A DNA stretch of 64,000 bases from Patescibacteria group bacterium (GTDB taxonomy: Bacteria > Patescibacteriota > Saccharimonadia > Saccharimonadales > CAYUUR01), in contig JBPOIH010000002.1 of the NCBI GenBank assembly GCA_052034685.1, positions 7,738 through 71,737 on the forward strand, written 5' to 3'. Positions 7,137 to 60,478 of this stretch are shown one piece after another. The stretch's first letter is position 1. Every line of letters begins with the position of its first letter. Position numbers and translations under genes: made by a program. Under the pieces are notes generated by a model. The model made no database searches, was not told the DNA's origin, and saw only the letters and a list, made by a program, of their open reading frames with translations.

Positions 7137-7233
7137 CAGTACGGCATTGTTTGAACTTTGGAGTACGACTCTCTCATCGTTTTCAGATTCTCCGAATTTA
7201 ATCACAAAGCTTAGCAATTGTTCAGAGTTTCAA

Positions 7234-7749
7234 TCACTTAGAAACTACTTTGTTAACCGCACTCCGCAATTTGCGGTTGCTCAATGCATAGATTGAGGTT
7301 AGCAATTCTAAATCACATCCATTCAAATCATTTGATGTTAGATTATTCTTTGGCCTAAAGATTGTGTGACCATACCTCAATATAATGCTTGTTATCAACG
7401 ATCTTTTGATAAGCTCTACGTTTACATCGGATGGTTCCGTAACCTTTTCTTCTATACCTAAAGTATCCGGGTTGATTTCACTGTTGAAGGCACAAGACTG
7501 TGGTATTTGCTCGAGGTTAGCCTTGGTAGCAACAAAAGAAATCTGTCTGCCCTGTGAGTCGTAAAGTTTAAAGTCGACATCCAGGATTGCTGTCCCGAAA
7601 TTATACACGTATTCAATGCTGTCGCTTATCTCATCGACAGAATAACCATCTTTATAACGATCAAGAAGGTAGTAGGGAGACTTTGTGTGGGAAGCTGCCA
7701 TGTTCATCATCTCCAGAATAACAAACTTCGCATAAATGAGTGTAACCAT
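7234..7749 (-). CDS. Hypothetical protein (171 aa) in the inserted segment
   Basis: ORF only, visibly more AT-rich than its flanks. An internal GGAG-ATG alternative start lies near 7701. Confidence 0.45.
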   Translation of the reverse strand: MVTLIYAKFVILEMMNMAASHTKSPYYLLDRYKDGYSVDEISDSIEYVYNFGTAILDVDFKLYDSQGRQISFVATKANLEQIPQSCAFNSEINPDTLGIEEKVTEPSDVNVELIKRSLITSIILRYGHTIFRPKNNLTSNDLNGCDLELLTSIYALSNRKLRSAVNKVVSK

Positions 7750-7807
7750 TCTATCGTACTGATTATCGCAAATTAAATACTATTGATATCGGGTCACTAT
7801 TATAAGC

Positions 7808-8224
7808 TCATTTTATGGACGTTTGTTGCGACGAATATGGCTCAAAATGTCGTACTTTGACAAGTGAACTTTTCCTCTTTAATAGCGCATTAATATTAAA
7901 CTTCTCTTTACCGACCTGCACTTTGTACGAGGTATGCTGTTTATCATACTCGTGAATTGTTATTTTTCCAGCAACCACATCATTAATTAGCTTTCTAAGA
8001 CTAGGGGCGAGTCGTTCAGGATGTTTTGGATTCTGGAACAATTCGATGGTGTAAGTATCATCGAAGAGGACTAGGGCTGTCCAGGGCTCAACATCAATTA
8101 CAATCTTACATGCATCACTGTTTAAAAGAGGGCTTACTTCAAGCCTTCCATCCGCACACTCAACTCGCGCCTTGTCTTCAAGGTTCTTTTTTAACTCCAA
8201 ACACAACTCGTTAAATGCTGTCAT
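7808..8224 (-). CDS. Hypothetical protein (138 aa) in the inserted segment
   Basis: ORF only; small soluble protein. Confidence 0.5.
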   Translation of the reverse strand: MTAFNELCLELKKNLEDKARVECADGRLEVSPLLNSDACKIVIDVEPWTALVLFDDTYTIELFQNPKHPERLAPSLRKLINDVVAGKITIHEYDKQHTSYKVQVGKEKFNINALLKRKSSLVKVRHFEPYSSQQTSIK

Positions 8225-8315
8225 TATGTATATGCTTCACTTTAATATATGATGGTTTATTGGAGATGAGAGTGGCTTTCATTGTTGTGGCTAGAATCTG
8301 ATAATAGTTATCATT

Positions 8316-8813
8316 CTACTTGTTTAATAGTTTGGAAAAAAATCCTCGTTTTTGTTTACGAATGTCGAGTAGCAGCCCTGATTTCAACTCTCTTCGTACA
8401 ATTCCTGGTGACTGTTGCACATTCCCAGTTTTAGTTATTTCGAAGTAGTATTTCTCGTCCTGACCAAGGATGACGCACCCGAAACTAGCGTCAGCGGTTA
8501 GTTCTTGTAGAAATGGAAGCTTCGAAAGTTGCGTCCCAATACTAATAAGTTGTTCTTCCGTACAATTACTTTTTTGAGGCATATCAACTTTAGTATTGAG
8601 GCTTATTTTCCCGTACTTCGTAGAATCATCATAAAATGCCGTTAGTGTGTCGCTTTGATAGTGCAGTGTGACCTCGACTTGTTTCTCAAAGTTACGCTCT
8701 CTTACACAATACGTAATTGGCACTTTTGACATTGCAATAAGTAGCAGGAGATTTTGGTCTAGTTTCAAAATCTGATTAACTTGGTGCTCTAGATTATTCG
8801 ACATTGTCTTCAT
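8316..8813 (-). CDS. Hypothetical protein (~165 aa) in the inserted segment
   Basis: ATG at 8813. The track's TTG start at 8834 would abut the response-regulator fragment. Confidence 0.45.
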   Translation of the reverse strand: MKTMSNNLEHQVNQILKLDQNLLLLIAMSKVPITYCVRERNFEKQVEVTLHYQSDTLTAFYDDSTKYGKISLNTKVDMPQKSNCTEEQLISIGTQLSKLPFLQELTADASFGCVILGQDEKYYFEITKTGNVQQSPGIVRRELKSGLLLDIRKQKRGFFSKLLNK

Positions 8814-8838
8814 TATCTCATAGGCAGTCGCCAAAATT

Positions 8839-8927
8839 GCCTACGCTTCCTAAATGTTGACCGCTACATCGTCAAGGCTCACCACACACCACAACAAGTC
8901 ATAGATATCGTCAAAGAACTTATCTGA
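8839..8927 (+). pseudogene. Displaced 3' end of a response-regulator gene (encodes LRFLNVDRYIVKAHHTPQQVIDIVKELI*)
   Basis: This 89-nt stretch aligns to 7048..7136. There are 10 substitutions, all third-codon-position synonymous, plus TGA in place of TAG. No upstream receiver sequence is present. Confidence 0.75.
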
Positions 8928-8963
8928 TAACTTACTAGCGCAACTATCCAGCTAAAAACAAGA

Positions 8964-8991
8964 TTGACTGCAGCTATAGACGCGCTATTAT
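8964..8991 (+). promoter_or_regulatory. Putative sigma70-type promoter of RR2
   Basis: TTGACT-16 nt-TATTAT. ATG 8995 and GTG 8998 follow within 3-6 nt, which looks leaderless. Confidence 0.4.
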
Positions 8992-8994
8992 CTG

Positions 8995-9375
8995 ATGGTG
9001 CCAAAAAACAAAACCATCTTACTTATCGAAGACGACGAAGCCATACGCGAAATGTATCGGCTCAAATTTGAGCATTTGGGCGTAGCTATTACAACAGCAG
9101 AGGACGGTAAAGAAGCGCTAAAAATTGCCCTAAAGATCAAGCCGTCTATACTCCTGCTCGACATCAAGATCCCTACTATTGGCGGCGAAGAAGTGCTTGA
9201 AGAACTCCAAAAACACGCTTGGGCCAAAGACATGAAGGTCATCATCCTTAGCAACATCAACGAAAAAGAGGCCCCGGCCAAACTCCGTGAGCTCCACTAC
9301 GACCGTTATATGGTCAAAGCACACTTTACGCCAGCAAAGGTAGTAGCCGCAGTAGCTGAAGTTATTGCCGAGTAG
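8995..9375 (+). CDS. Stand-alone response-regulator receiver domain protein (RR2)
   Basis: ILLIEDDEAIREMY...ILLLDIKIP...ILSN...KA. Confidence 0.9.
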   Translation: MVPKNKTILLIEDDEAIREMYRLKFEHLGVAITTAEDGKEALKIALKIKPSILLLDIKIPTIGGEEVLEELQKHAWAKDMKVIILSNINEKEAPAKLRELHYDRYMVKAHFTPAKVVAAVAEVIAE

Positions 9376-18385: not shown

Positions 18386-18544
18386 CCTCGACTTGGCTGC
18401 TTTAGCAGACAAAAGTCGAGGGTTCGGTCACAAGGAGCTCTCGCAGATGCTTGCATCGAGAAAGCAACGCAGTGTGCATTGCCCCTCCTGCCTTGTTTTC
18501 ATAGACGAAGTTTCGGGCCGGCTGAAAGTCGGTCGAGTCCCTCC
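18386..18544 (+). repeat. tRNA-linked structured element E1 (a family-A unit plus a 3' fragment of a family-B unit)
   Basis: It shares about 85% identity over its first 45 nt with the element after tRNA-Pro. It contains GTCGAGGGTTCG (identical to the tRNA-Lys T-arm 5' part), CCCTCCTG-CC and TCGAGTCCCTCC (tRNA-Lys 3' part mimics). Confidence 0.65.
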
Positions 18545-18588: not shown

Positions 18589-18966
18589 ATGAAACGTGGT
18601 GCTTTTGCGGTTATTCTAAAGGGAGATAAGCTTCTATTTGTTAAACCCCCTGATTGGGTATCGCAATTTAGTGGCCATTGGAATTTTCCTGGAGGAGTTG
18701 TCGAACCTGGCGAGTCTCTTGAGGAGGGGGCAAAAAGAGAAGCTTTTGAGGAAACAAACATCGTGTGTGAAATAGAAAGCCTTTTGATGACCGATCACAA
18801 CGAAAAATTCGACACATCCATAGCAATATTTAAAGCAAAGTACATATCTGGAGAAGTCACAATTCAACCAGAGGAAATATCAGAGGCAAGATGGATGACA
18901 ATTGAAGAAGCCCTTAATGAGCCTCTCGCCTTTGACATCAAGCAGGCGTTACTAGCTTTAGCCTAA
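18589..18966 (+). CDS. NUDIX hydrolase
   Basis: Nudix box GGVVEPGESLEEGAKREAFEETN. Confidence 0.85.
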   Translation: MKRGAFAVILKGDKLLFVKPPDWVSQFSGHWNFPGGVVEPGESLEEGAKREAFEETNIVCEIESLLMTDHNEKFDTSIAIFKAKYISGEVTIQPEEISEARWMTIEEALNEPLAFDIKQALLALA

Positions 18967-19022: not shown

Positions 19023-19080
19023 GTGCGTTGCCCCTCCGACCAAAAGTTTCGGGCCGGCTGAAAGTCGGTCGAGTCCCTCC
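19023..19080 (+). repeat. Element E2, a direct repeat of the E1 3' part
   Basis: 19044-19080 is 37/37 identical to 18508-18544. 19023-19037 matches 18474-18488 with 1 mismatch. Confidence 0.85.
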
Positions 19081-20051: not shown

Positions 20052-20972
20052 ATGAACGAATCAGCAATTAGACGTCTTTTCTTGAACAATAATATTGATG
20101 TGACTGGCGATATTCGTAAAATTGAAGTCGGATTTACAAACACGGTCTATTGCGTAGACGATAAATACATACTTAAAATTTGTAGACTCACTGACAACGA
20201 GGTTTACTTTAAACGAGAAGTGCAGCTATACGAATACTTTGGCGCAAGCTTGCCGGTTCCTCGAGTACATACCTACGACGACTCAAAGTCTATCATCGAC
20301 AATCACTACATGATCTACCCACTCATTGAAGGAGAAAACCTTTACAATGTCTGGCACGCATTATCAGAAGAACAACGAAAAGATATCATAAGCCAACTGT
20401 GTGAAATATTAAAGCAAATCAACCAGACAGATATAGGTGCGCTGCCTAATGGCATAGATCTCGGAGATGGCACATCCTGGAAAGAAAAAATCCTGACCAA
20501 ACTATATAAGCATCTAGACGCTGTCGACAAAATGGGTACGCTTAGTGCGAGTGAAATAGCTCAGATTCGAAACTACGTTGAAGAACACCAAGACGTTTTG
20601 GATGAACAAAAGATGGCGCTGGTGTACTGGGACGCGCACTTTGACAATGTCATTGTTAAGGGCAGCAAAATTGTTGGGCTACTTGATTTTGAGAGGACTG
20701 AGTTAGCCTCGATTGACTTTGCTTTGGATATTGTTCAAAGGATGGTTGATATTCCAAAGAAGTACATGTCGGAATATGCAGAACAGTTTGCCAAGGATGA
20801 AGATTATGCTCAGCTTATGGAGTGGTACAAGGAATACTACCCAGAGTTATTTGATTTCCACGATATAGCAACCAGAATTAATTTGTATTCCATCGCACAC
20901 GACCTCGAAGATCTTGAGGGATGGCCCGATGTCCAATCTCTAAAGGACAATGTCTTGAAAATAACCGCCTAG
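20052..20972 (+). CDS. Aminoglycoside/choline-kinase-type phosphotransferase (APH family)
   Basis: VYWDAHFDNVIV...GLLDFE is the catalytic HxDxxxxN...D motif. Confidence 0.8.
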   Translation: MNESAIRRLFLNNNIDVTGDIRKIEVGFTNTVYCVDDKYILKICRLTDNEVYFKREVQLYEYFGASLPVPRVHTYDDSKSIIDNHYMIYPLIEGENLYNVWHALSEEQRKDIISQLCEILKQINQTDIGALPNGIDLGDGTSWKEKILTKLYKHLDAVDKMGTLSASEIAQIRNYVEEHQDVLDEQKMALVYWDAHFDNVIVKGSKIVGLLDFERTELASIDFALDIVQRMVDIPKKYMSEYAEQFAKDEDYAQLMEWYKEYYPELFDFHDIATRINLYSIAHDLEDLEGWPDVQSLKDNVLKITA

Positions 20973-21070
20973 CTTGCTGTAACGGCTGCGGTCATCCCTG
21001 CTATGACCTTCCAAAACAGTCCTGCTTAAAACAGAAGTTATTCGTATCCCCCTTTTGATATACTTCCCCC

Positions 21071-21553
21071 ATGCCCATACACCGTCCTAAACTCATATCA
21101 AGCATTGAAGGTCTCGGCCTTAATACAACCAAATCCATGAGATACACATCTAAGACAACGGCTATTGGCACTGAAATTTGGAATGAGTTAGAAGAACCCT
21201 GGCAAGAGGGCGAAACCATCATTGCGCGCCCAGGTTACAAATGGGTTACGCGGTGGGAGGTCGGCAAACCGTACATTATTAATAAGTTCTACGATGACGC
21301 TAATCATCTAGTCGGTATTTATTGCGATGTTGCTCGGCCAGTACGGCAAATTGAGGGTGGTTTTGAATTTGATGATCTTTACCTCGACGTCTGGTGGACT
21401 ACAGGTAAGCCAATCAGCGTGCTTGACGAGGATGAATTACAGGATGCCTTAAAGGCTGGCTACATTACAACAAATGAAGCCGACGAAGCTCATCGAGTTG
21501 CTAAAGAGCTGATAGAGTTGCTGAAGCAACAATCAGAAATTCTACAATTTTAG
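21071..21553 (+). CDS. DUF402 family protein (nucleoside tri/diphosphatase-like)
   Basis: GIYCDVARP...DDLYLDVWW...LDEDEL pattern. Confidence 0.65.
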   Translation: MPIHRPKLISSIEGLGLNTTKSMRYTSKTTAIGTEIWNELEEPWQEGETIIARPGYKWVTRWEVGKPYIINKFYDDANHLVGIYCDVARPVRQIEGGFEFDDLYLDVWWTTGKPISVLDEDELQDALKAGYITTNEADEAHRVAKELIELLKQQSEILQF

Positions 21554-21630
21554 ACCCATAACATCGGAGGCTGCCTTCTAATAGAGGCCACCTTAAACAG
21601 AGTTCATCTTCTTTTTGCTATACTTCAGAC

Positions 21631-22158
21631 ATGAAATTGATATTCATCTACGGGCCACCCGCCGCTGGTAAGCTAACTGTTTCAGAAAAGCTATCCGAAT
21701 TAACAGGCATACCTGTTTTTCATAATCATCATTCCAGAGATCTGGTGAAGGATATCTATGGGGATGGCCTAAATCAGCACTACGCACTCGTAGACAAAAT
21801 TCGCTATGACGTGATGGAGTACTGCGCACAGAACAATACCGATTTAATATTTACCTACGTATACGGTGGACCCCAAGATGACGATAACGTAAAAGGCTTC
21901 ACAAAAACGATTGAATCAAATGGCGGTCAAGTTTTGTTTGTAGAACTCACGGCCGATGCAAGTGATCTAGTAGACAGAGTCGATAATGATTCACGGAAAA
22001 GATTCAAAAAGTTACTGGACAAAAAGATAATGACAGAACTTACAGAAAACATGTCAATTTTTACCATTCCATACGTTGAATCATTGAAAATAAACACATC
22101 AGATACTAGTCCTGCTCAATCCGCTGATATCATCGCAAACAAACTAGGGTTGCTTTAG
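21631..22158 (+). CDS. P-loop kinase-like ATPase
   Basis: Walker A GPPAAGKLT close to the N-terminus. Confidence 0.6.
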   Translation: MKLIFIYGPPAAGKLTVSEKLSELTGIPVFHNHHSRDLVKDIYGDGLNQHYALVDKIRYDVMEYCAQNNTDLIFTYVYGGPQDDDNVKGFTKTIESNGGQVLFVELTADASDLVDRVDNDSRKRFKKLLDKKIMTELTENMSIFTIPYVESLKINTSDTSPAQSADIIANKLGLL

Positions 22159-22182
22159 TTTAGTAAGCTGAAGATAGTTATC

Positions 22183-22914
22183 TTGGACTTGGATGGCACG
22201 ACCGTTGCATCAAATGAAGCAGCTATGCCAAGCAAACGTGTTATTGAGGCAGTCAAAAGTGCCCAAAACAAAGTTCACGTAGCTGTAGCAACTGGCAGGC
22301 CATATAGTTACGCCTTGCCCGTTATCAAAGCGCTTAATCTACGCGGCCCGAGTGTATTTAACGGGGGTGCAGAGATAGTTGAAAGTGATACCGGCAAAGT
22401 ACTGCACCGCCAGATGTTGTCTATAGATGCGCTCCAAGAACTAGCTACTCTTAGCTTACCATTCGGCTATAAAATATACAGCGATGAAGATGACTACTCC
22501 TCACCAATAACGAATCCTAAACAGGTTACAGGAGAAGCTGCGAAGTTTTTTATTGAAGCGGTCAAAACCAACGACGCAATACATATACTTGAGGAGCTAG
22601 CTGCCGTCAAAACAGCGGCAGCTCACCCGACAACTTCATGGGATACAGGCGATGTGGTTGATATTCATGTCACACATGTAGATGGCACCAAAAGGCATGG
22701 CGTAGAAAGATTAATCACAATGCTTGGTATCGACAAGGAACATGCCCTTGCCATTGGCGACAGCCATAATGACATACCCATGATGGAGGCGGCTGGCTTT
22801 AAAGTAGCCATGGGCGACGCACCAAAAGAAGTGAAGGTTCTAGCTGATTATATAGCCCCCTCGCTACATGATGATGGCGTAGCCGAAACAATAGAACGCT
22901 TCATATTAGCTTAA
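22183..22914 (+). CDS. Cof-type HAD-IIB phosphatase
   Basis: LDLDGT and GDSHNDIPMMEAAG. The start codon is uncertain (TTG 22183 or further upstream). Confidence 0.85.
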   Translation: MDLDGTTVASNEAAMPSKRVIEAVKSAQNKVHVAVATGRPYSYALPVIKALNLRGPSVFNGGAEIVESDTGKVLHRQMLSIDALQELATLSLPFGYKIYSDEDDYSSPITNPKQVTGEAAKFFIEAVKTNDAIHILEELAAVKTAAAHPTTSWDTGDVVDIHVTHVDGTKRHGVERLITMLGIDKEHALAIGDSHNDIPMMEAAGFKVAMGDAPKEVKVLADYIAPSLHDDGVAETIERFILA

Positions 22915-23084
22915 GGATCAGTTGCAAAAAACTAAGAGGCTCTGCAGACATTGACTTAATTTAGCAAGCAAAGGTCGTGGCTCTAGTTCCACACGGGCCC
23001 ATCTAGAAACCCATAACAAGTTATTTGCTAATTAGTAAAGAGTATTTTAGAATGGTTTAAACAGTAGGTAGGAGAGTTAGCTCA

Positions 23085-24008
23085 ATGCATTATGAAGTTA
23101 TGTATTCCCCAGGCGATCCAAACAAAGAAGGCTGGGCGCAGAAAGAACAAGATGTAAATGACCGTCACCAGAATTGGTACAGACTTTCAAGAATCGTCTT
23201 AACTGATTTGTTTCACGAAACTGGCGTCTATGACAATCTGAAGCGTGGCCAGCGCGCAAAACTCGAACGAAAGAACCAACTGGCGCTCAACCCACAACTT
23301 CCGCTTACGCGCGGTGAGCGATCTGCCAATCGCGGACACGCCAGCGGGATCCCTCTGTGGGCTATACCTATTCTACTCGGCGCTTCTGTTGTTGGAGCAG
23401 GGGTCGACGCCGTTGAAGGGTATTCCAAGACCGAGCGGATAGGTAGCCAGTATTTGGCAAGTAAGTTCCAGAACCTACACCAACGTTTGGGAATTGACGA
23501 AACAATTCGTGGCATTGATGGCGTGAATGAAGGCATCGTGTCTCGACTGGCACCACAGTTGAGGGTTGGAAGCGCTGCTGTACTGGCAAGCCAAGAGCCT
23601 GCCAACTATATTGTGAACATGGCTGATCTTTTGGAAGCAACCGAAGAGGCATTACGGCAAGATGGCACAACCGCCAACTTAGAACGTAGGAGAAGACTCA
23701 ATACTCTGTTTACTGAGAAGGCGCCACAACCACTGTCAGCGCAAGACCAAAGAGTTCGCGCAGCTGAAGTATTTATGAGCAGTAGCCTGTTAAGTAACGG
23801 CGAAATCTGTGACATCAGTCTAGAGCGACGGGCAGATTTTCTTCCGGACGGAGAAAAGACATTCCGAATAGAGACGACAACTCCCTATGCGTATCTGTAC
23901 GAGGGTACTGACATGACTGGCGCATACGAGCCGTACAGAAGACTCTATGCCGACAGATTACTCAATCCAGACCCAATAGCTGAACTAGTACAGAACTCCA
24001 TCGCCTAA
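23085..24008 (+). CDS. Hypothetical protein with one TM segment
   Basis: ORF only. Confidence 0.45.
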   Translation: MHYEVMYSPGDPNKEGWAQKEQDVNDRHQNWYRLSRIVLTDLFHETGVYDNLKRGQRAKLERKNQLALNPQLPLTRGERSANRGHASGIPLWAIPILLGASVVGAGVDAVEGYSKTERIGSQYLASKFQNLHQRLGIDETIRGIDGVNEGIVSRLAPQLRVGSAAVLASQEPANYIVNMADLLEATEEALRQDGTTANLERRRRLNTLFTEKAPQPLSAQDQRVRAAEVFMSSSLLSNGEICDISLERRADFLPDGEKTFRIETTTPYAYLYEGTDMTGAYEPYRRLYADRLLNPDPIAELVQNSIA

Positions 24009-24050
24009 GAGAGTAGAGAGCGTAGATTATTATTTTGTTATACTTGGCAA

Positions 24051-24698
24051 ATGGATAAAGCTGCCAAGACTGTCTGGGACTATATGCTTCTCGGGCACCC
24101 CATAAAAAAGTGTGATGTTATTCTCGTGCTGTGTAGCGTAGATGAGCGCGTAGCTGAATATGCAGCTCAGTTATTTCTAGATGGGCGTGGTGACTATCTG
24201 GTGTTTTCTGGTGGGGTAGCCCACCAAGGTGACTTGCTTGCCACCAATTGGGAAGGAAGTGAAGCCGATCACTTTGCAGAAATTGCTGTTTCAAGAGGAG
24301 TACCGAAAGACAAGATCATTATTGAAGACAAGGCGCAGAACACCGGCGAGAATATTAGGTTTTCATATGACCTTCTTAAGAATCGAGCAGTCAAAATGAA
24401 TTCTATATTGCTTGTGCAGAAGCCATATATGGAACGACGCACATTCGCTACTTTTAAGGCTCAGTGGCCAGACATAACTACAGAGATTGTCGTGACATCA
24501 CCACCCATCAAGTACGACGACTACTTTGATACGGTCAATCCAAAAGAAATGGTTCTGAACATCATGGTTGGTGACCTGCAGCGCATAAAGGAATATCCAA
24601 AACTAGGCTTTCAAATTCTGCAGGATATTCCTGAAGACGTCTGGCAATCGTATGAGCAACTCGTAGCCGCAGGTTACACAGAACACCTCATGAAGTAA
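24051..24698 (+). CDS. DUF218/YdcF-like protein
   Basis: VILVLCS...YLVFSGG...NTGENI pattern. Confidence 0.7.
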   Translation: MDKAAKTVWDYMLLGHPIKKCDVILVLCSVDERVAEYAAQLFLDGRGDYLVFSGGVAHQGDLLATNWEGSEADHFAEIAVSRGVPKDKIIIEDKAQNTGENIRFSYDLLKNRAVKMNSILLVQKPYMERRTFATFKAQWPDITTEIVVTSPPIKYDDYFDTVNPKEMVLNIMVGDLQRIKEYPKLGFQILQDIPEDVWQSYEQLVAAGYTEHLMK

Positions 24699-24765
24699 GC
24701 AGTAACTGTAGAATTATCATGAATTAAAAACAGGATATGGTAGCTGTTTTTGTTATAGTTTAACT

Positions 24766-25290
24766 ATGAAAGAAGTCGCTTGGGTGTTTGGAAATAGTGC
24801 TGCAGGTAAAGAGACGTTTATAAAGTACGTAACCGGAAATAGCGACAAACGGCTTTTTGATAGGCTGGGCTGGACGAACAGAAAAGTAAAAGTTGCCCTA
24901 TCCAGCATTGATAACATTGGGCAGTTTCTGAACGACCCTATTACATTAAAGCGTGATGGCATTCTTACAGAAACGCCACACTTACTAAAAGAGGCGGATG
25001 TCGTGCTCATTAAGTGGCAAACGGTAGATAGTGAGGCGGACAGAATAGAAAAACTTATGGCGCTATTGCCCAATGTTCTGCATAGGATAATACTCATATC
25101 TACGCCAAAATCAGAACTCACAAAAAGGCTACCAAACAAAAGTTGGTGGGACGACGATGACATTGACGCTTTTATTCAAGAAGAAAATGAGAGTCTTGAA
25201 CAAATAATTAACGACCTAAAAGACAAGCTACCGGTTATTGAGATCTCTGGTAATCCAACCGAGCATTACCATCCTATCTCTAATTCATAA
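24766..25290 (+). CDS. P-loop protein, unknown function
   Basis: GNSAAGKET Walker-A-like motif. Confidence 0.5.
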   Translation: MKEVAWVFGNSAAGKETFIKYVTGNSDKRLFDRLGWTNRKVKVALSSIDNIGQFLNDPITLKRDGILTETPHLLKEADVVLIKWQTVDSEADRIEKLMALLPNVLHRIILISTPKSELTKRLPNKSWWDDDDIDAFIQEENESLEQIINDLKDKLPVIEISGNPTEHYHPISNS

Positions 25291-25324
25291 GACCCGTCTT
25301 GATGCCTTTTGATACAATACAAGC

Positions 25325-25606
25325 ATGTCATTTCAAGCCTATCTAGACAATATTGAAACCAAAAGCGGCAAGACTCCCAACGAGTACATTGAACTTGCTA
25401 AGGCCAAAGGTTTTAGTAAAGACACTAATGCCGGCGAAATAGCGACCTGGCTCAAGCAAGATTACCAGCTTGGCCACGGTCACGCCATGGCACTGGTGCA
25501 CGTTATAAAGAACGGTGCCAAGATTAGTGATAAACACGTTGATACCGGTAGTGCACATAGCGACGACAGTAACGAACTCCGCCTCGACGGCCTCAAAAAC
25601 AGATAA
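25325..25606 (+). CDS. DUF4287 domain protein
   Basis: MSFQAYLDNIETKSGKTPNEYIELAKAKG...GHGHAMALV. Confidence 0.65.
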   Translation: MSFQAYLDNIETKSGKTPNEYIELAKAKGFSKDTNAGEIATWLKQDYQLGHGHAMALVHVIKNGAKISDKHVDTGSAHSDDSNELRLDGLKNR

Positions 25607-44957: not shown

Positions 44958-45080
44958 ATGGGGATCGGTCACGTTCCGCGACCCCGAAACTTCATCTTTG
45001 AAAACAAGTTTTCAAGAGAAGGTTTCCTTGCAAAATGCCATCAGGCATTTTTCACCCACGACAGTCGTGGGTTCGTTCAC
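44958..45080 (-). repeat. tRNA-linked structured element E3 (family B), downstream of tRNA-His
   Basis: Five hairpins whose arms covary with the copy at 48321..48470. It ends with GATCCCCAT, identical to the tRNA-His T-loop/T-stem 3' part. Confidence 0.65.
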
Positions 45081-47707: not shown

Positions 47708-48292
47708 CTATTTTGTTGCTTGAATGTCCTGTAACTTAGTAATTAATTCTTGGGTATTTCCGCTCTGCTTCATAGACCAGTCAGGCTTAATGTCCTTTGT
47801 GGCTTTGTTATAATCCCGAAGTTGATCAGGCAGTTCACTAAGTATCTGAGCAACATTAACGCCTCTAACTTGAATGCGATTAGCCAGCTCTTCTTCCGTA
47901 GCCTCAAGACCAATAATAAACACAGGCCTTCTATTTGCATTAGCCACATTAAGATAGCTATCACCATGCATGTAGTATTGAATTATATTATTGTCAAAAA
48001 CCACTAGCTTATTGGGTGCTACGGCAAAAATTTTCTCTACTACCTCCGCCACAATTGCTTTTAGTTCAATACCTTGCTCAGTTGCTTTAGGGTACTTCTT
48101 TAGAAGTATACGAACTTCATCATTACATACATAGGTAGCATCCAATTTATCAACTAGTAGTCGTCGAGTCGTAGATTTCCCTGAACCAGAACAGGCAAAG
48201 AAAAATATACATAATGGAGAATTACTTACCTCTAAGTTAGGTCGGCTAGCGTAATATTCTTCAGCCAGCTTTTTTAGTAAATATTCAGACAT
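47708..48292 (-). CDS. P-loop kinase/zeta-toxin-like ATPase
   Basis: Walker A CSGSGKST. The gene is AT-rich. Confidence 0.55.
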   Translation of the reverse strand: MSEYLLKKLAEEYYASRPNLEVSNSPLCIFFFACSGSGKSTTRRLLVDKLDATYVCNDEVRILLKKYPKATEQGIELKAIVAEVVEKIFAVAPNKLVVFDNNIIQYYMHGDSYLNVANANRRPVFIIGLEATEEELANRIQVRGVNVAQILSELPDQLRDYNKATKDIKPDWSMKQSGNTQELITKLQDIQATK

Positions 48293-48320: not shown

Positions 48321-48470
48321 CAGGGATTCGACCTACCTTTGGCAGGCCCAGAACTTCTGCCATGACAACAAGTTGTCGGGTGAAGATTCTCTTGCAAACT
48401 GCAACCGGGCAGCTTTCACCCCGACCCTTGGGGTCGGGAGCTCGAACCACTTAGATAGACAACTCAAAAA
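48321..48470 (-). repeat. tRNA-linked structured element E4 (family B)
   Basis: Homologous to 44958..45080 with compensatory hairpin changes. It ends with TCGAATCCCTG (tRNA-Arg(TCT) has TCGAATCCTGC). Confidence 0.65.
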
Positions 48471-48515
48471 CCCGCTTGTGCGTGGTACGGCGTGATTACC
48501 GAGATTAAAATACTA

Positions 48516-48755
48516 CTATAGGGGATGAGTTGATTGGTGTAGAGCTTTTATCTGATCCTTTGAGAGTCTTTTTTTGTCGTTCTCTTCCCATACTCTGCGC
48601 CACTCACCGTATATTTTTTGACGAAGCTCAATATCGCCACCGGCTGCATCATCATATGCATACTGAATCCCACAGCTCGGGCAGATTTCAAATGAATCCA
48701 CGGGATCCAAGTCGCCCCAATCTTCGCCGCATACCAGACATTTGTATTTACTCAT
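48516..48755 (-). CDS. CPCC-type cysteine-rich zinc-ribbon protein
   Basis: CLVCG...FEICPSCGIQYAYDD. TATACT lies 6 nt upstream of the ATG, with no SD. Confidence 0.65.
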   Translation of the reverse strand: MSKYKCLVCGEDWGDLDPVDSFEICPSCGIQYAYDDAAGGDIELRQKIYGEWRRVWEENDKKRLSKDQIKALHQSTHPL

Positions 48756-48769
48756 GCAATAAGTATAGC

Positions 48770-48798
48770 AAAAGACCTCTCTAGCGAAGAGGTCTTTT
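48770..48798. terminator. Hairpin after tRNA-Arg(TCT)
   Basis: aaaagacctct-ctagcga-agaggtctttt. Confidence 0.55.
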
Positions 48799-48812
48799 AA
48801 TCATAAGCAAAT

Positions 48813-48889
48813 TGGTGCCCCGGGCAGGATTCGAACCTGCGACCTTGAGCTTAGAAGTCTCCTGCTCTATCCAGCTGAGCTACCAGGGC
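48813..48889 (-). tRNA. tRNA-Arg(TCT), CCA encoded
   Basis: Hand-folded: GCCCTGG/CCGGGGC acceptor, loop CTTCTAA, T-arm GCAGG-TTCGAAT-CCTGC. The anticodon stem has two mismatched end pairs. Confidence 0.8.
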
Positions 48890-48900
48890 ACACCGCCGCT

Positions 48901-48930
48901 ATTATACCTTCACTAGTGCTATTCTTGCAA
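48901..48930 (-). promoter_or_regulatory. Promoter of tRNA-Arg(TCT)
   Basis: On the minus strand: TTGCAA-18 nt-TATAAT, 11 nt upstream of the tRNA 5' end. Confidence 0.5.
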
Positions 48931-49142: not shown

Positions 49143-50474
49143 ATGGATCAAGAGCCGCAAACTCCTAACACAGACGAACAACCAAGTGCGCCGCCCCCTC
49201 CGACACCGCCAATTAAGACAGAGGATGAGCTGTTTCAATCAGCTGGTCAACACATGGAAATGGAATCATCACCAGAGGTTGCACCAAACCCCGTAGTTGC
49301 GCCCAAGAAATCAAAAAAGAAGCCTATCGTCGCCGTTATTGTCCTAGTGGCATTGCTGGCCGGTGCAGGAGTTGTAGGCTATCTGCTCACGCAGGATCGA
49401 CCGGCCGAGACACCTGCCGCAACCGTACAGCCGGCCGAAACCAAACCCGTAGCACTTACCTACGAGCCAAACACTGTAACTTATACTTACCGCGCAAAGT
49501 CCTCTGACCCCGTAGCAGTATTCACACGTCCAGCTGCCGGTGGTGAACGCAAAGAGATCCAACAACTGACGCGCGACAGCATCATAACGGCTTCAGATAC
49601 TTCTGGGCCGAATAGTGCATTTGTTGACGGCAGCACCATTTACGTCAGCACAGATAACGGAGAAACCTACAAAAAAGTGTTTGAAGGAGAAGCCGGCGCG
49701 CAAGTGACTAGTCTCAAATTTGACGCAGACAATACCGGTTTGGCATTCGGCTACCTTAAAAGTGACAAACCAAAAAATGAAGTCAGAACAATTGATATGT
49801 CTGGCCAGAATGCTAAAACACTATTCACTGCAGACACCGCTGGCGCCTACATATTGGGGTGGTCAAGCAAAGCAGAACGCATGGTATACCAAACAGGCTG
49901 TTACAACTGTGATGGCAGGCCAGAAAACACCTACAGCTTTGATACCAAAAGCACCAAGCGGACTGCGCTACTCGAGGACGTAAAAGCTAATGAACTCGCC
50001 AGCATTTCAGTTTCAAGCGACACATCACTGATGATCTATATTGTAGGCGTCTATCCAACTAACTCTGATGATCCACTGCCGGCGCTGGTCCCACCTTACG
50101 TCGTGAACCTCATAAAGCTAAGCGGCACGGACAAACCTACTGAGATTGCGCGCATTGGTAACGCAGGTGAAAAAAACTCTAACGGTACACTCTTAACCCG
50201 AACAACTCTGGCTGGCTTCACAGCTGGCACCAACACACCGTACTACACCGCCGACAAACAGCTCTTCCTGGTGAAGGCAAACGAAGGACTGCTCTTCTAC
50301 GAATCGGCAGATGTCATAGAAAATGTTGATTACATAAGCGACAAGTATGTCATTTCGAGAACCGGTGACCCGAGTGATTTCACCATGGCTAACTACGATA
50401 CTGCCACCAAGAAATCAGTAACTATCCTCCAAGGTGACAACAACACCACTATCTTTGGCGTCACAACCGACTAA
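49143..50474 (+). CDS. N-terminally anchored extracytoplasmic protein, beta-propeller-like
   Basis: Pro-rich N-terminus, one TM, then repetitive beta-strand-rich sequence. Confidence 0.5.
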   Translation: MDQEPQTPNTDEQPSAPPPPTPPIKTEDELFQSAGQHMEMESSPEVAPNPVVAPKKSKKKPIVAVIVLVALLAGAGVVGYLLTQDRPAETPAATVQPAETKPVALTYEPNTVTYTYRAKSSDPVAVFTRPAAGGERKEIQQLTRDSIITASDTSGPNSAFVDGSTIYVSTDNGETYKKVFEGEAGAQVTSLKFDADNTGLAFGYLKSDKPKNEVRTIDMSGQNAKTLFTADTAGAYILGWSSKAERMVYQTGCYNCDGRPENTYSFDTKSTKRTALLEDVKANELASISVSSDTSLMIYIVGVYPTNSDDPLPALVPPYVVNLIKLSGTDKPTEIARIGNAGEKNSNGTLLTRTTLAGFTAGTNTPYYTADKQLFLVKANEGLLFYESADVIENVDYISDKYVISRTGDPSDFTMANYDTATKKSVTILQGDNNTTIFGVTTD

Positions 50475-50776
50475 TCGAGCTCGATTGCCAAAGACTTTTT
50501 AACCACTTTCTTATTTACAGAATTCTGGAAAAGTCTGTATGCATCACGGTTTTCCTTTACGTATATCATTTTAATCCCAAGTTCTTGATCGCAGCCCTGG
50601 CATACAAGTTTGGATTCTTTTGGCGTCAGGTTGATCATTCTATCAACATACATGCGTTTGAGTGGTCCTGGTCCATCCTTTTGGTATAGACAAATGTGGT
50701 CGTCACATTTCTCACAGGTAACATCGATGATCCTTGACCAGCCTCCTCTTGCTTCGCTGTAAGCGTCTTTTTTCAT
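50471..50776 (-). CDS. Small CxxC zinc-finger protein
   Basis: CEKCDDHIC...CQGCDQ. ATG 50776 is preferred because the track's extension runs into the tRNA-linked repeat. Confidence 0.5.
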   Translation of the reverse strand: MKKDAYSEARGGWSRIIDVTCEKCDDHICLYQKDGPGPLKRMYVDRMINLTPKESKLVCQGCDQELGIKMIYVKENRDAYRLFQNSVNKKVVKKSLAIELD

Positions 50777-50827: not shown

Positions 50828-50993
50828 TGGTGCGGGTGGAGAGACTATCTGATAAATCAGATGCACCGGCAGCGCATGCTCGGAGCAAGCTCCTGTGCGT
50901 GCACTTTGTCTTCGAACTCGTGCTACGCCCAGTAGAGTTCGATTACTTGTTCACATACCAATCCTTTACTCTCGCGCAGCGAGAACAAAGGAT
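50828..50993 (-). repeat. tRNA-linked structured element E6 (family A-like), ending in an exact 17-nt copy of the tRNA-Gly 3' end
   Basis: 50828-50844 is identical to 50994-51010 (tggtgcgggtggagaga). Internal TCGAACTC...GAGTTCGA is an inverted copy of the T-arm, and there is a GTGCAT box. Confidence 0.7.
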
Positions 50994-52377: not shown

Positions 52378-54574
52378 TTACTTCGCTAGGTGCTTCTGCT
52401 TACGTAATACCACGATCAGTACAGCGCTGAAAGCCAGGACAGACGCAGCAGCCACAAAGTACTGTGTGGGTTGCCCAGTATCTGCGAGATCACTATCGCC
52501 TGAGGCGCTTGTTTCATTCAGACTGTGATAAGCCGAAAATTCTGATGTCGAGCCGTGACTGTAAGTACTAGGATCAGGATTTATTTCTGCTGCAAAAGAC
52601 GACTCAGGTACAAATAGAGAAATGGACACGAGCATGAGTACTGCAACTATTATTTTATTCACAGTCCGATACATACGGTGGCCCATTTCCCCTTCGTAGA
52701 TTATCCGTGCAGTTATTGTTTCTCCACAGCACAGTGGCGGTTGCGGAAACAGTCAAGTTATCATCAATATTAGTTACTCCCGAGAAAACGTGCTCGGCAT
52801 TATCCTCACTACCATCAACTATAAAGCTACCCATGTGCTGCTTACCTTCACCATAACCTAGATTGCCAAGCTGATCGTTTAGATAGAAATCCAAACGATA
52901 CCCCACCAAGTCTTCAGCACGTAGTGATGAACCATCTTCACTATCTTCAATTAAGCCTGCGGTGAAGTCGTAGTTAATAGTAAGTTCTGTGCCATTGCTA
53001 CGTGAACTATTGATAACTGGATAATTAATGTAATTATTGGCCTGATCGGATGGATAGGTAAGGATAAACGCACGATTATCATTCGGGCCCGTATCAACAT
53101 CCGCGACATTGTCGTTCGCAGAATCATGAGCTAGATTGATACCTAAGTTCTCATTGCCAAATATACTGTTGCCTATTACGGAAACACCAAACACGTCAGC
53201 GCCTGGAGACTGGAAGATTTGCACTCCATCGTTACCATTACCGGCAATTACGTTACCTTCGGTGCTGTCGCCGCCGATCTCAATGCGATAAATACTTTGG
53301 GCCCCACCGCAAGGTGACGCTGTAGTAGTCTCATTTACTTGGACCCCATTCTGAGTATTTCCATAGCCCTCGGCGATCAATCCTTCAGTATTAGTCCCAA
53401 TGTAATTGCCCTGAACAACACCCCGCTGGTTGACCGTTGCGGAGCAGCTATTATCTGTCTCTAGATTGTTGTAAATCCTTACACCATTGTTACCGTTGGC
53501 AGATATTACGTTACGTTCGGCCGGCGTATCGCCACCAATCCGATAATCTGTAATAGGCGAATTTGCCCGTACCCCATTACCTAGATTACCTAACGGCAGG
53601 CCCGAAACAGATAACCCTATGTAGTTTCCAATTATGCTAACGTCTCCCTGTTCATATGTGTAGAATCGTATTCCGTCGTTTGTGTTCCCAGATATAACGT
53701 TTGTTTCAATAGTTACCTCAGCGAGATTTCCTATCAGTCCATCGTCTTGCTGGAGCGCATTGGTACCGGATGAATCTGTGCCGATTAAGTTATCCTTGAT
53801 ACTTGTTGTGGGGTGTGAAGAATCACCAATAATACCAACCGCACTTGTCGTGATTAGATTATTCTCTATCGAAAGCCCTTCAATAATACTTCCGACGTTA
53901 ATGCCTATTGTGGTGTCTAGACTGGCGGTACCCTGAGTATTTGTACCAATATAGTTACAATTTATTGATATGTCTGTGTCGGCCCCACTACCAAAACTAT
54001 CTGTACCAACGTTAATTGCCCTGAACTCACTATTCCATGACGTGTCGTGATTGATCACTAGTCCTCGTATAGTTGTATTGCTCGCTTCACCAAGACCTGA
54101 TGAATCAATTATAAAAGCAGTGCCGTACGAATCGGCTAGATCATCTACATATGTAACCTCAATGAGTAAATTGTGTGGGGTATTAGATGTGCTTGGAAGA
54201 GCTGGTACTAAGTCACCACAGCTCGCTCCTGGCTGACTCGTCCCATCAATCAGGACTGTTTCCGTAATGACAGGTAGAGCAGTATCGAGTGAAATCCGAT
54301 GCACCCCGGCACCGGCTATCGCAAAGTTGATCGTGTCGCTACCGTCAAGCATGTTTGCCTCTTCTATCGCTGCACGCAACGTGCAGTTACCCGATCCGTC
54401 ATCGCATATACCATTACCCGCATCGCTATCAGTAGTGTCAAGTATCGAATCTACCTGCAATGTCGCGGCAGACGCCTGGGGGCTGAAAAGAAAGCTTGAG
54501 AACACGACGCCAACCATAAGGATAAAAAATCCAACAAAATATGTGTTCCGCCTACTCAATGTTTTGCCCTTCAT
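52378..54574 (-). pseudogene. CSLREA/beta-helix surface-protein paralog split by a frameshift (ORFs 52655..54574 and 52378..52686)
   Basis: The 102-aa ORF carries the C-terminal module (GSTSEFS...LADTG + TM + basic tail) that is contiguous in paralog 54634..57186. The second frame is open back to 52752 and aligns there (IYEGEMGHRMY against PEEGDPGFGMY). Confidence 0.65.
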
Positions 54575-54633
54575 AATACTTATGCTAAGTATACCAAACG
54601 TAGTTAAAATACAGAAAGTTAACGCGCTGGTAG

Positions 54634-57186
54634 TTATCTGGTAGCGATTGATGTCCTGCTTCTGACGGAAAACACCAATCCACCTACACTCAGTAATATG
54701 GCTACGGCAACTAGCGCGCTCGTTCTTGACGCTCCAGTATCGGCCAGGGTATTTGCTGGATCCTCACTGAGGTTGGTAAATGAAGAGAACTCTGAGGTAG
54801 AACCATAAATGTAACTCCCTTCAGCGGGCGTATACTCAGCAGCACTGACTGTGGGCATAAAGAAATCTTTAATCCGACTAACGACGCTGTGTTCAGGTGC
54901 CGCACTAGGAAGTATATACATGCCAAAACCTGGATCTCCTTCTTCTGGGATAAATGAATCGGTGGTAAGCAGTGTTGCGGTTGCAGAGATATTCACGTCA
55001 TCGCCCAGCGCTACATCGGTTACAAAGGTGTGTTCGGCAGCCGATTCATCTCCATTCACATAGAAGTAACCCAAGTGTGTTTTACCCTGCCCATAGCCAG
55101 ACGGGTCTTCACTGTCGTTTAGGTAAAAATCAAGCCGATAGCCAACAACGTCGATCGTCCCATCATCTTCCTTGGCATCAAAATCGTATACAACTTTCAC
55201 ATAGTCTTCACCATACACAGCGCTGGTTACTTCTGGGTAAGCCACGAAGTGATTAGCTTGCTCAGCGGGGTAAGTTGCTGGATCAGCAGTATTCTTGGTT
55301 GCTGGGCCAGTTTCTACATCGGCCACTCCGTCGTTATCGGTGTCGGTCGCCAAATTTATACCCAAACCGCCATTACTATGAATACTGTTCGGCAATATGG
55401 CGATATTGAATACGTCAGAGCCACCACACAGATATGTATCACCGTCGTACTCATCAAACTCATCATCGCACGTCTCATCAGGCTGGCTATATATCTGCAC
55501 ACCGTCCCCTTCGTTACCAGCAATTACGTTTTGCTCACCGGGATTATCGCCGCCGATTGCGTGATTAAAAACAGATACACCGCCGCCGCAATCTTGCGTG
55601 AAAATCTCGTTAGCTTGAACTCCTGCACCACCATTTCCATAGCCGTCAGCAACTTCTCCACCCACGTTTAACCCAATGTAATTCCCAGTTACGCGCGAGT
55701 TTCTGGTGACCGAACAGCCATCATTATAGATATGCACTCCGGCGTTTGTATTTGCGGAGATTACATTCCTGTCTTCAAGGCTATCCCCACCAATAACCGA
55801 AAAGATATCTGTGCCTACAGAATCTGTGTCTGTAAACACCTCAACCCCATCCGTACCGTTACCTGCCGGTTGACCGCTAGCGTCTAAGCCAATGTAATTC
55901 CCAGTAATCGTAGCGCCCTGTTGACGCACTCTGACGCCAGTATAATCATTACTATAGATAGTATTGTTGTGAATAACGGAATTGGCTAACGCTGAGACGC
56001 CATCCCTGTTGCCGTGTATCAAATTGTCACGAAGCGTGTAGCTCCCGCCATCCAAACCAGAGATATTTGCACCGAACAAAGAATTATCTCGAAGCGTGTT
56101 ATCTGATGCTTCTCCTGTACCATCAGATACAGATATGCCAGTCCCGTCGTTATTTGCAACTAGGTTTGAGGTTATCGTCAATGATGTAGATGAACTAGAC
56201 TGGATCCCCTCGGAACCATTACCGACACTATCGCCATTCATATTGGCACCAATATAATTGTTCGTGATAGACACGCTGTCTGCGCCGTTGACGCCTATCC
56301 CTTGATTTTCACAACCTGCGACAACATTATTATTTACCTGGCTCGTTGCTGCGCCTTCTACATAAATTCCTTGCGAATAATCTTCGCTATCCGTCAGCTC
56401 ATTCTGTCCGGTTTCGTCTGTGCAAAATAAATTGGACTCAACTACATAATTACTGCCCTCACTTACAATGAGTCTTTTTGCGAACAGGTTGTCCTCTATT
56501 GTGATGTTTGTACCGTCTCCGTTCACTGAATAGAGGTCCGCTGCGAAATTTTCTGCGAACGTCACGCCGTCTGTATCAGCCCCGAAATAGTTACAGCTAA
56601 TCACCATATTGGAGACATTGTCTCCAATAACTAGCCCATACACTTGATCGTTACCGTCAAGCCCAGCATTAACAATCCCCAACCCGGTTACAGATGAACC
56701 AGACGAGCCAGTTTCAAATCTCAGAATTGCAAGATTCACGTCAACATAGGTTAGGTCTGAGCCATCGATCACGATACGAAGGTCATGTGGGGTATTAGAT
56801 GCTGCTGGCAGCTCATCAGGTACCAAATCACCGCAAGATGCCCCTGTCTGGCTCGTACCATCCATACTGATCGGGGTTGTTATTTCTGGCAGAAAATCCA
56901 GTAGTGCAATAGTGTGTGGGCCCGCACCAGAAATAGCAAAAGTAATAGTATCAGATTCTGGTGTTGCGTTGGCTTCTTGAATCGCTGCCCGAAGCGTACA
57001 ATTGCCCGAACCATCATCGCAAAGACCATTACCGATATTGTCATCAGTGGCATCGAGTGTTGAATCAACTTCAAACGTCGCCGCCGAAGCTTTCATGGTA
57101 AACAAAAAAGTGGGCGTTATAACGCCTATAACGAGAATTACTAATGGCAGTAAATACCTGCTTTTTATTTTCACTTTGTTACCCAA
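54634..57186 (-). CDS. Sortase-anchored CSLREA-domain, right-handed beta-helix repeat surface protein (850 aa)
   Basis: Signal peptide, GNCTLRAAIQEAN, many NxIxGN-type repeats, and a C-terminal LADTG followed by a hydrophobic segment and RSRTSIATR. Confidence 0.8.
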   Translation of the reverse strand: MGNKVKIKSRYLLPLVILVIGVITPTFLFTMKASAATFEVDSTLDATDDNIGNGLCDDGSGNCTLRAAIQEANATPESDTITFAISGAGPHTIALLDFLPEITTPISMDGTSQTGASCGDLVPDELPAASNTPHDLRIVIDGSDLTYVDVNLAILRFETGSSGSSVTGLGIVNAGLDGNDQVYGLVIGDNVSNMVISCNYFGADTDGVTFAENFAADLYSVNGDGTNITIEDNLFAKRLIVSEGSNYVVESNLFCTDETGQNELTDSEDYSQGIYVEGAATSQVNNNVVAGCENQGIGVNGADSVSITNNYIGANMNGDSVGNGSEGIQSSSSTSLTITSNLVANNDGTGISVSDGTGEASDNTLRDNSLFGANISGLDGGSYTLRDNLIHGNRDGVSALANSVIHNNTIYSNDYTGVRVRQQGATITGNYIGLDASGQPAGNGTDGVEVFTDTDSVGTDIFSVIGGDSLEDRNVISANTNAGVHIYNDGCSVTRNSRVTGNYIGLNVGGEVADGYGNGGAGVQANEIFTQDCGGGVSVFNHAIGGDNPGEQNVIAGNEGDGVQIYSQPDETCDDEFDEYDGDTYLCGGSDVFNIAILPNSIHSNGGLGINLATDTDNDGVADVETGPATKNTADPATYPAEQANHFVAYPEVTSAVYGEDYVKVVYDFDAKEDDGTIDVVGYRLDFYLNDSEDPSGYGQGKTHLGYFYVNGDESAAEHTFVTDVALGDDVNISATATLLTTDSFIPEEGDPGFGMYILPSAAPEHSVVSRIKDFFMPTVSAAEYTPAEGSYIYGSTSEFSSFTNLSEDPANTLADTGASRTSALVAVAILLSVGGLVFSVRSRTSIATR

Positions 57187-60401: not shown

Positions 60402-60478
60402 TGGTCGGGGTGAAAGGACTCGAACCTTCGACCTTGCGGTCCCAAACCGCACGCGCTAGCCAACTGCGCCACACCCCG
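60402..60478 (-). tRNA. tRNA-Pro(TGG), CCA encoded
   Basis: Hand-folded: CGGGGTG/CACCCCG acceptor, loop TTTGGGA, T-arm GAAGG-TTCGAGT-CCTTT. Confidence 0.9.

Follow-up and report, generated by a model that had tools for sequence, protein, structure and literature searches.

A strain-specific zinc-ribbon gene and a tRNA-linked structured module at a tRNA-Arg(TCT) locus of a Saccharimonadales genome: probably separate layers and no cassette

In a 64-kb stretch of a Saccharimonadales genome (called the window here; positions without a locus prefix are the window's), the minus strand of 48321-48889 carries an intact tRNA-Arg(TCT) gene, called by both ARAGORN and Rfam, a terminator-like hairpin, an open reading frame (ORF) for a 79-amino-acid (aa) protein with a C4 zinc ribbon, and E4, a non-coding element of ~195 nucleotides (nt). 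The original prediction, made from the letters alone, had described this order and had taken it for one unit in which E4, as right end, delivers a single small gene next to a tRNA gene. Every feature is where the prediction placed it, and the gene does have TATACT six nucleotides before its ATG; the hexamer is in fact part of an extended −10, TGcTATACT, which overlaps the T-run of the terminator-like hairpin. This layout, TGnTATAnT-N5-7-start, stands ahead of ~20 window ORFs and is therefore a habit of this genome and no mark of a cassette. The hairpin itself was missed by a simple consensus terminator scan, probably because its T-run is part of the stem. E4 ends as predicted in GGGCCTGCC-aaa-GGTAGG-TCGAATCCCTG, the terminal hairpin CCTGCC-aaa-GGTAGG being followed by TCGAATCCCTG at 48321-48343.

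Three genomes cover this locus: that of the window and those of the relatives L028 and L042 (L-numbers denote fetched loci). The contig of L028 and L030, CAYUUR010000004.1, is syntenic with the window at 75-88% identity. In L028 a module of family B, to which E4 belongs, comes directly after the terminator of tRNA-Arg(TCT), with no ORF in between; the hairpin that follows the tRNA in the window is absent. The gap between tRNA and module is 97 nt there and 414 nt, an outlier, in the window, where the module is on the same strand as the tRNA yet an ORF lies in between. A gene-less spacing of 83-107 nt is found in 32 loci, which include three other tRNA-Arg(TCT) loci (L028, L063 and L074), and the claim that tRNA, gene and E4 form a single unit does not survive these comparisons. 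In L042 tRNA-Arg is followed by a module of a second family, A, with a perfect 17-nt repeat, and by an unrelated gene; it has no B, and the 79-aa ORF is absent from the tRNA-Arg loci of both relatives. E4 and the B of L028 are 90.8% identical, compared with 75-80% for the flanking genes, and differ by a compensatory C-G to T-A change in P4, one of the hairpins of the module; together these argue for selection on B.

The flanks of E4 point to the tRNA allele of L028. The T arm of the L028 tRNA, GGTCGGGGGTTCGAATCCCTCC, is exactly what flanks the module in E4 (GGGTCGGGG / B / TCGAATCCCT), and the window tRNA, which reads …TCGAATCCTGCC (T arm GCAGG/CCTGC), does not match. What had been described as a T-loop/T-stem mimic is thus a real duplicate of a tRNA 3' segment, though of the L028 allele and not of the present tRNA. 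The two tRNA-Arg(TCT) alleles are deeply different, with compensated anticodon and T stems, and are spread against genome relatedness (window 48813-48889, L028:5832-5908, L042:2342-2418); the window allele is 94.8% identical to that of the more distant L042 and ~80% to that of the closer L028. Between the stop codon of the ORF and E4 the window reads TCGgtAATCaCgCC--GTACCAcGCAcAA...gcgggtttttgagttg and aligns with the T-loop-to-CCA segment and the start of the terminator of L028. This alignment is weak (score 22 against 15.1±3.0 for shuffles, 40 of 1000 shuffles equalling it, p ~0.04); the putative remnant reads GTACCA as in L028, and the present tRNA GCACCA. The 330 nt that are extra in the window hold only the 79-aa ORF, with no integrase gene and no A or B module, and are parted from E4 by the putative remnant of the older tRNA 3' end and terminator, which leaves E4 unsuited to be the end that delivered the gene. 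As the flanks of E4 match the relative's allele and the putative remnant lies between gene and E4, the gene is best read as a later, separate insertion.

On the other side of E4, homology to L028 stops right after CCCTGT. Beyond this point L028 has a small hairpin, then what remains of the tRNA 3' copy (12 of 14 nt), followed by a terminator and by an APH-family gene, in whose place the window has an AAA_33-like gene. The GC content of this gene is 0.36-0.38 against 0.46 for the window, and the AAA_33-like kinase gene was probably acquired recently. E4 is a conserved block between two window-specific genes, the zinc-ribbon gene and the AAA_33-like gene. The tRNA 3' copy after B is split after CCCT by a hairpin of 18-58 nt, for example GTCCGCCCTGTCTGGCAGACAGGCGGGC, in several relatives (L028:6069-6110, L076:1207-1250, L075 ~5688-5770), which explains the final G in the TCGAATCCCTG of E4. 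When metagenomes were scanned for orthologues of E4 beside tRNA-Arg, the only loci obtained were four at tRNA-Gln, which show the nested hairpin. When reverse-complemented, the segment GGTCGGGGTGAAAG of E4 (48413-48426) is identical to the 14 nt that precede the terminal A of tRNA-Pro (60403-60416); with E = 0.04 within the window, this match was treated as chance.

Table 1. Features of the tRNA-Arg(TCT) locus and of other module-bearing tRNA loci in the window
Feature	Position	Strand	Basis or remark
tRNA-Arg promoter, TTGCAA-18 nt-TATAAT	48901-48930	-	Score 10/12; kept in L028
tRNA-Arg(TCT), allele 1, T arm GCAGG/CCTGC	48813-48889	-	ARAGORN; Rfam tRNA, 62.4 bits
Terminator-like hairpin and T-run after the tRNA, aaaagacctct-tcgctag-agaggtctttt	48770-48798	-	Read from sequence; window-specific
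Extended −10, TGcTATACT, leaderless layout, 6 nt before ATG	48762-48770	-	TATACT itself at 48762-48767
79-aa C4 zinc-ribbon ORF, CLVC...CPSC	48516-48755	-	Strain-specific accessory gene
Putative decayed older tRNA-Arg 3' end, T loop to CCA, TCGgtAATCaCgCC--GTACCA	48483-48502	-	Weak local alignment to L028
Putative remnant of older terminator, cgcacaagcgggtttttgagttg	48460-48482	-	Aligns with gcatgggctttttgtttgg of L028
Inverted (reverse-complement) arm of tRNA 3' half and loop of hairpin P1	48428-48449	-	Sequence reading
Forward variable-region and T-stem 5' segment, GGGTCGGGG, left flank of B	48419-48427	-	Matches GGTCGGGGG of L028 tRNA-Arg
B module proper (E4): TGAAAG, then hairpins P2, P3, P4	48332-48418	-	Covariance-model match spans 48328-48425, 88.1 bits
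T loop and T-stem 3' copy, TCGAATCCCT, and first base (G) of a lost hairpin insertion	48321-48331	-	Sequence; relatives
194-aa AAA_33-like gene, TGaTATGAT-N6-ATG	47708-48292	-	Window-specific replacement downstream of E4
Second full B copy, canonical position 92 nt after tRNA-His	44964-45061	-	105.9 bits
A-type module after tRNA-Gly, ending in exact 17-nt tRNA 3' copy	50828-50958	-	Then 101-aa zinc-ribbon gene, 50471-50776
B 3' piece and tRNA-Lys T-loop copy: first copy of 37-nt repeat, before NUDIX gene	18508-18544	+	Repeat comparison
Second copy of 37-nt repeat, after NUDIX gene (18589-18966)	19044-19080	+	Perfect match to first copy

Databases contain nine relatives of the 79-aa protein. 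An identical one belongs to the same strain; the others are at most 54-71% identical over part of the length and belong to other lineages, the closest non-identical one standing at 54%. The contigs with this nearest homologue carry neither a tRNA nor B, so that gene and module occur apart in both directions, E4 without the gene in L028 and a homologue of the gene without B elsewhere, contrary to what linked delivery had led the original prediction to expect. Its naming of the gene as CPCC-type fared no better as a family assignment: the window protein has no match to Cys_rich_CPCC (PF14206), and its homologues reach 9-15 bits (E = 0.02-1.2) where the cut-off is 24.5. No Pfam or NCBIfam model matches the protein at cut-off, the best Pfam match being Zn_ribbon_8 at E = 0.016, below cut-off. 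Judged from its sequence, 'CPCC-type' is a resemblance, with family membership not demonstrable, and the gene is to be regarded as a real orphan C4 zinc-ribbon gene, ordinary accessory content.

E4 is a true member of family B, as had been claimed. A search pattern built from the conserved junctions of E4 and of the tRNA-His copy of the window was run over 185,579 species genomes and gave 70 loci, ~64 of them in metagenome-assembled genomes of Saccharibacteria/Saccharimonadales, often with several loci per genome; the remaining ones look like chance matches. A covariance model of the hairpins P2, P3 and P4, derived from an alignment of 65 copies (junctions GTGARAA and TTTGCAAG), finds 82 strong copies in 66 sources, the Saccharibacteria genomes with the module numbering ~60. 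Scored against this model from 65 copies of other genomes, E4 reaches 88.1 bits (E = 4e-19) and is therefore no chance match. The model recognises just two full copies in the window, E4 and the tRNA-His element; the two are homologous, with compensated hairpins, and the latter is 92.6% identical to the L030 copy over a blastn segment of 189 nt and 97% over the B module alone. The three helices have 97% of their cells paired in the 65-copy alignment, with changes on both sides in 18 of 29 pairs, a level reached by none of 500 shuffles; slid controls are 32-47% paired. One G·U pair in P4 is retained in 57 of the 65 copies and, together with the covariation, this means that the structure is read on one strand, as RNA or as single-stranded DNA. 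Folding E4 as a single sequence gives back the same hairpins, and P2 and P4 are dissimilar to each other. A pseudoknot between the P3 loop (CTTG) and a junction (CAAG) was rejected, copies outside the search pattern showing no compensation. All B copies lie close to one consensus across species and tRNA types, and clustering them by tRNA type or genome as a means of separating vertical descent from transposition was uninformative for this reason. Short variants with GTGAGAA-P2-TTYGCAAGG and P4, lacking the long P3, are seen at L031:3908-3972 and L048:4755-4820.

Rfam 15, whose families include ribozymes, group I introns and omega-RNA-type motifs, yields tRNAs only when scanned at the gathering threshold, and a scan of E4 at E <= 10 gives only noise. 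The B pattern has no match in IMG/VR, and a phage origin was rejected on that ground. Family B, with ~97 nt and three hairpins, appears to be undescribed so far: literature searches gave no account of the module and turned up only group I intron work in Patescibacteria, whose tRNA genes are reported to contain such introns (PMC13011429).

That the repeat system is tied to tRNA genes is borne out. In ~32 loci (type i) a same-strand tRNA precedes the B core by 83-107 nt; in ~20 loci (type ii) it follows the core at a distance of 44-97 nt. B is found within 160 nt of 48 of the 86 tRNAs in the fetched loci, a sample biased by the choice of loci for containing B, and all 48 copies are on the strand of the tRNA. 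Type i loci are ordered as tRNA, terminator, degenerate reverse complement of the tRNA 3' half, forward positions 44-53, B, T-loop-to-CCA copy and, usually, a second terminator, which differs from the first where present. The forward positions 44-53 pair with the end of the inverted arm to form hairpin P1, and the T-loop-to-CCA copy that abuts the right end of B is exact over 19-21 nt at most type i loci. With tRNA-derived flanks on both sides, B is thus inserted after T54 of a partial tRNA copy. E4 lies outside the canonical spacing and shares the strand and the flanks of the family. In type ii loci a promoter and a tRNA 5' fragment precede B, the TATAAT promoters being well kept, and the insertion point is in the T, variable, anticodon or D loop. 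The inverted arm is seen only where a module exists, which rules it out as a general feature of tRNA terminators. B was also rejected as a tRNA intron: 84 copies were spliced in silico in 7631 variants, and none yielded a tRNA across the junction.

Of the six tRNA genes in the window, five have partial copies of their own 3' end downstream. Family A is found at sites of the kind that B occupies, at the tRNA-Lys, tRNA-Pro and tRNA-Gly genes of the window and in L018, L024, L030, L042, L070 and L072, and smaller hairpins are nested in the same decoy tRNA copies. A P3 variant specific to one genome recurs at two of its tRNA loci (L026 and L029). Tandem module units occur as an identical 170-nt unit at L056:7567-7833 and as three B copies around one tRNA-Val at L011:2760-3328, and at L042:560-790 a repeat of ~85 nt comprises tRNA 3' end, terminator and inverted arm. 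The hairpin CCCCAyAAAACAGGTTTTrTGGGGACCCCG stands in two unrelated contexts, the anticodon loop of an upstream tRNA-Gln copy in L076 and L053 ~1500-1530, which suggests another tiny mobile hairpin. In four genomes B lies within a hairpin that is not a tRNA, TGAGAGG / B / TCCCCTCTCA (L016:6180-6400, L045:150-420, L053:1330-1560, L054:1530-1760). Ahead of these copies stands a conserved GGGGAGAGCAGCC(C/G)GAG... segment; the sites give no match in Rfam and neither a tRNA nor a tmRNA in ARAGORN, and the hosting hairpin may be another unannotated small RNA.

Gene turnover and layering recur at other tRNA genes, three loci differing in gene or module content between the window and its syntenic relatives. 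At tRNA-His, the relative (L030) carries one additional A-type layer, 138 nt long; this layer includes a terminator of its own and an exact 19-nt repeat, and it separates the tRNA from the window-type terminator. The closest parallel to the window tRNA-Arg locus is the tRNA-His locus of L024. There tRNA-His and a terminator precede an A layer, which is followed by a 16-nt repeat and another terminator; a 173-aa orphan gene comes next, then a remnant 3' end together with a duplicate of the first terminator, and finally B. tRNA-Gly is found in three states, with neither module nor gene in L028, with an A module alone flanked by repeats of ~85 nt in L042, and with an A module, 17-nt repeat, terminator and 101-aa zinc-ribbon gene in the window. 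Exact direct repeats of tRNA 3' ends are present in other layers as well. At tRNA-Lys the two perfect copies of the 37-nt repeat bracket the NUDIX gene. The notion that single genes are delivered beside tRNAs therefore stands in part: small genes do turn over there and one is repeat-bracketed, and E4 is not the delivering end. Modules without a gene are far commoner than modules with one, and 7 of 10 sampled genes that adjoin modules have no Pfam family. Just downstream of tRNA-Lys and the NUDIX gene, 20052-25606 is a run of small and medium-sized genes, each with TGnTATAnT-N6-ATG and including an APH-family gene (20052-20972), which may be a larger accessory islet. Diverged direct repeats inside apparent coding regions at 7048-9367 and 53217-55905 (families D1, D2 and D4) probably encode repeated domains of proteins and have no relation to the tRNA modules.

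The reading that we favour, at a probability of roughly 0.6, takes E4 for an old, vertically inherited B copy and the zinc-ribbon gene for a later, independent insertion at a tRNA-proximal hot spot of stacked layers, with no tRNA-cargo-B cassette. B would sit in the T loop, after T54, of a partial and non-functional duplicate of the 3' half of the neighbouring tRNA, its normal position being immediately after the tRNA terminator. New DNA would have entered at the 3' part of tRNA-Arg and brought a new terminator, a leaderless promoter and the ORF; a different tRNA-Arg allele probably came along, the gene arriving with or after the allele replacement. This insertion would have moved B downstream along with the old T-loop-to-CCA segment and the old terminator, both of which would have decayed since, and a second window-specific replacement, the low-GC AAA_33 gene, would abut the other side of E4, which would be the oldest recognisable layer. 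The T-loop-to-CCA segment, in which tRNA-targeted integrases classically cross over, is duplicated in most type i B copies and several A modules, and recombination within it may be how layers enter. The agent may be homologous recombination that follows DNA uptake, or a recombinase whose gene lies elsewhere. As for B, it could be a selfish insertion without autonomy, active as a single strand (RNA or single-stranded DNA) and persisting in decoy tRNA copies only; the strand-specific structure, the loop-only sites, the nesting, the variable presence and the shared P3 variant argue for this.

Several points weigh against this account. The remnant of the old 3' end is statistically weak, and with three genomes at the locus the polarity of insertion versus loss rests on the canonical spacing and on that remnant. 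A motif scan of limited sensitivity, for the tyrosine-recombinase box II motif in ORFs of at least 150 aa, found none in the window and 66 related loci. The tRNA-Gly relative keeps the first terminator of the window, a misfit with a simple crossover in the T loop. That all B copies, whatever their species and tRNA type, lie near a single consensus is compatible with strong host selection and with mobility alike, and B may act as RNA or as single-stranded DNA.

A broader proposal, tentative and held at less than even odds, is that the A and B modules and the nested hairpins form a new class of tiny non-autonomous, strand-specific elements that target tRNA-shaped loops (T, D, anticodon and variable). 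Insertion into a live tRNA would be lethal, so that the elements would be kept only in partial decoy duplicates that arise with them (an inverted 3' half and a forward half). The decoys would provide additional T-loop-to-CCA segments to land in and turn tRNA flanks into the principal places of gene capture in these reduced genomes, with the CPCC-type gene as one example.

Conservation above the neighbouring genes, the type ii promoters and the exact tRNA 3' end with its terminator leave room for a host RNA. B (and A) would then be host non-coding RNAs that serve tRNA metabolism or regulation and are transcribed as fusions with tRNA fragments on which their function depends (tRNA mimicry), and gene turnover would be incidental, tRNA genes being generic recombination anchors. 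The covariation with its conserved G·U pair and the absence of B from the viral contigs of IMG/VR agree with this, as does the own terminator that follows the exact tRNA 3' copy. We nevertheless think it unlikely, because B is present at some tRNAs only and varies between close relatives, because it is inserted in four kinds of loop and even in a non-tRNA hairpin, because tandem and nested copies and other tiny insertions occur alongside it, and because one genome has its own P3 variant at two tRNA loci.

The cassette of the original prediction, with B as an att-like right end that delivers single genes beside tRNAs, is improbable and at the tRNA-Arg locus already largely refuted. Against the repeat-bracketed NUDIX gene, the small genes that directly follow an A module and repeat at tRNA-Gly of the window and in L024, and the prevalence of orphans among module-adjoining genes stand E4 without the gene at the same site in L028, the gene-less tRNA-terminator-B order that is the default in ~32 loci, the A module without a gene in L042, the module-free 330-nt insert with a putative older terminator remnant between it and E4, and the contigs of the nearest homologue that lack B. 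An equally slim chance attaches to modules acting as folded single-stranded DNA recombination sites, like integron attC or Vibrio VCR, by which a recombinase encoded elsewhere captures cassettes after DNA uptake: the strand-specific structure, the imperfect palindrome of inverted and forward arm, the adjoining small orphan genes and the bracketed NUDIX gene recall such sites, whereas there are no cassette arrays, no integrase motif nearby in the motif scan and no readable R'/R'' core sites at the boundaries, most copies have no adjacent cassette, and the sequence of B is conserved far beyond the needs of attC. That the zinc-ribbon gene was ancestral at the locus and deleted in relatives, with no insertion in the window lineage, is the least probable, for although the relatives that cover the locus are just L028 and L042, and reduced genomes often undergo deletions, the gene-less spacing is the rule across 32 loci, tRNA-Arg(TCT) of L028, L063 and L074 among them, a second, decayed 3' end and terminator (a weak match) lies downstream of the gene, the window tRNA allele differs from the flanks of E4, and the protein has almost no relatives.

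Saccharibacteria genomes are very small, and their gain and loss of accessory genes are poorly understood. On the reading favoured here, in which E4 is the old layer and the gene the later one, tRNA flanks are turnover sites for single small genes, and duplicated tRNA 3' ends record the order of events. A structured module of ~97 nt lies near about half of the tRNA genes in a sample chosen for B; if mobile, it would be a new kind of loop-targeting element, and if a host RNA, a new tRNA-linked RNA family.

Among known systems, tRNA introns (group I introns of Patescibacteria, PMC13011429, and archaeal bulge-helix-bulge introns) resemble B as structured insertions in a tRNA loop, in a lineage known for tRNA introns; B, however, matches no group I family of Rfam, is mostly found in the T loop and not the anticodon loop, and its in-silico removal never restores a tRNA. 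Like REP/REPIN (RAYT) elements and miniature inverted-repeat transposable elements, B is short, multi-copy, extragenic, hairpin-forming, lineage-conserved and non-autonomous. Unlike them, it has three distinct hairpins, no terminal inverted repeats of its own and no short target duplication, and it lies only inside tRNA-like sequence, in tRNA orientation. Integron cassettes with attC or VCR sites share with the present loci the pairing of small, mostly orphan genes with a repeated, structured, strand-specific element, and the NUDIX gene is repeat-bracketed. In contrast to integrons there is no IntI/attI platform and there are no arrays; the element is tied to tRNA genes and usually without a cassette, and instead of RYYYAAC/GTTRRRY cores the boundaries read GGTAGG/TCGAATCCCTGTTACTC. 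Integrative elements that target tRNA genes comprise prophages, genomic islands and integrase-less remnants such as cis-mobilisable elements. The units described here differ from these in their size (0.15-0.5 kb), in the lack of an integrase in the window or the 66 loci by the motif scan, in carrying an inverted tRNA 3' half and in the structured module that splits the T loop of the duplicate. As with such elements, the far boundary is marked by a directly repeated T-loop-to-CCA segment (at this locus a putative, decayed copy with a weak match), the insertions lie at the 3' part of the tRNA gene, the tRNA is left intact and successive insertions are stacked in tandem.

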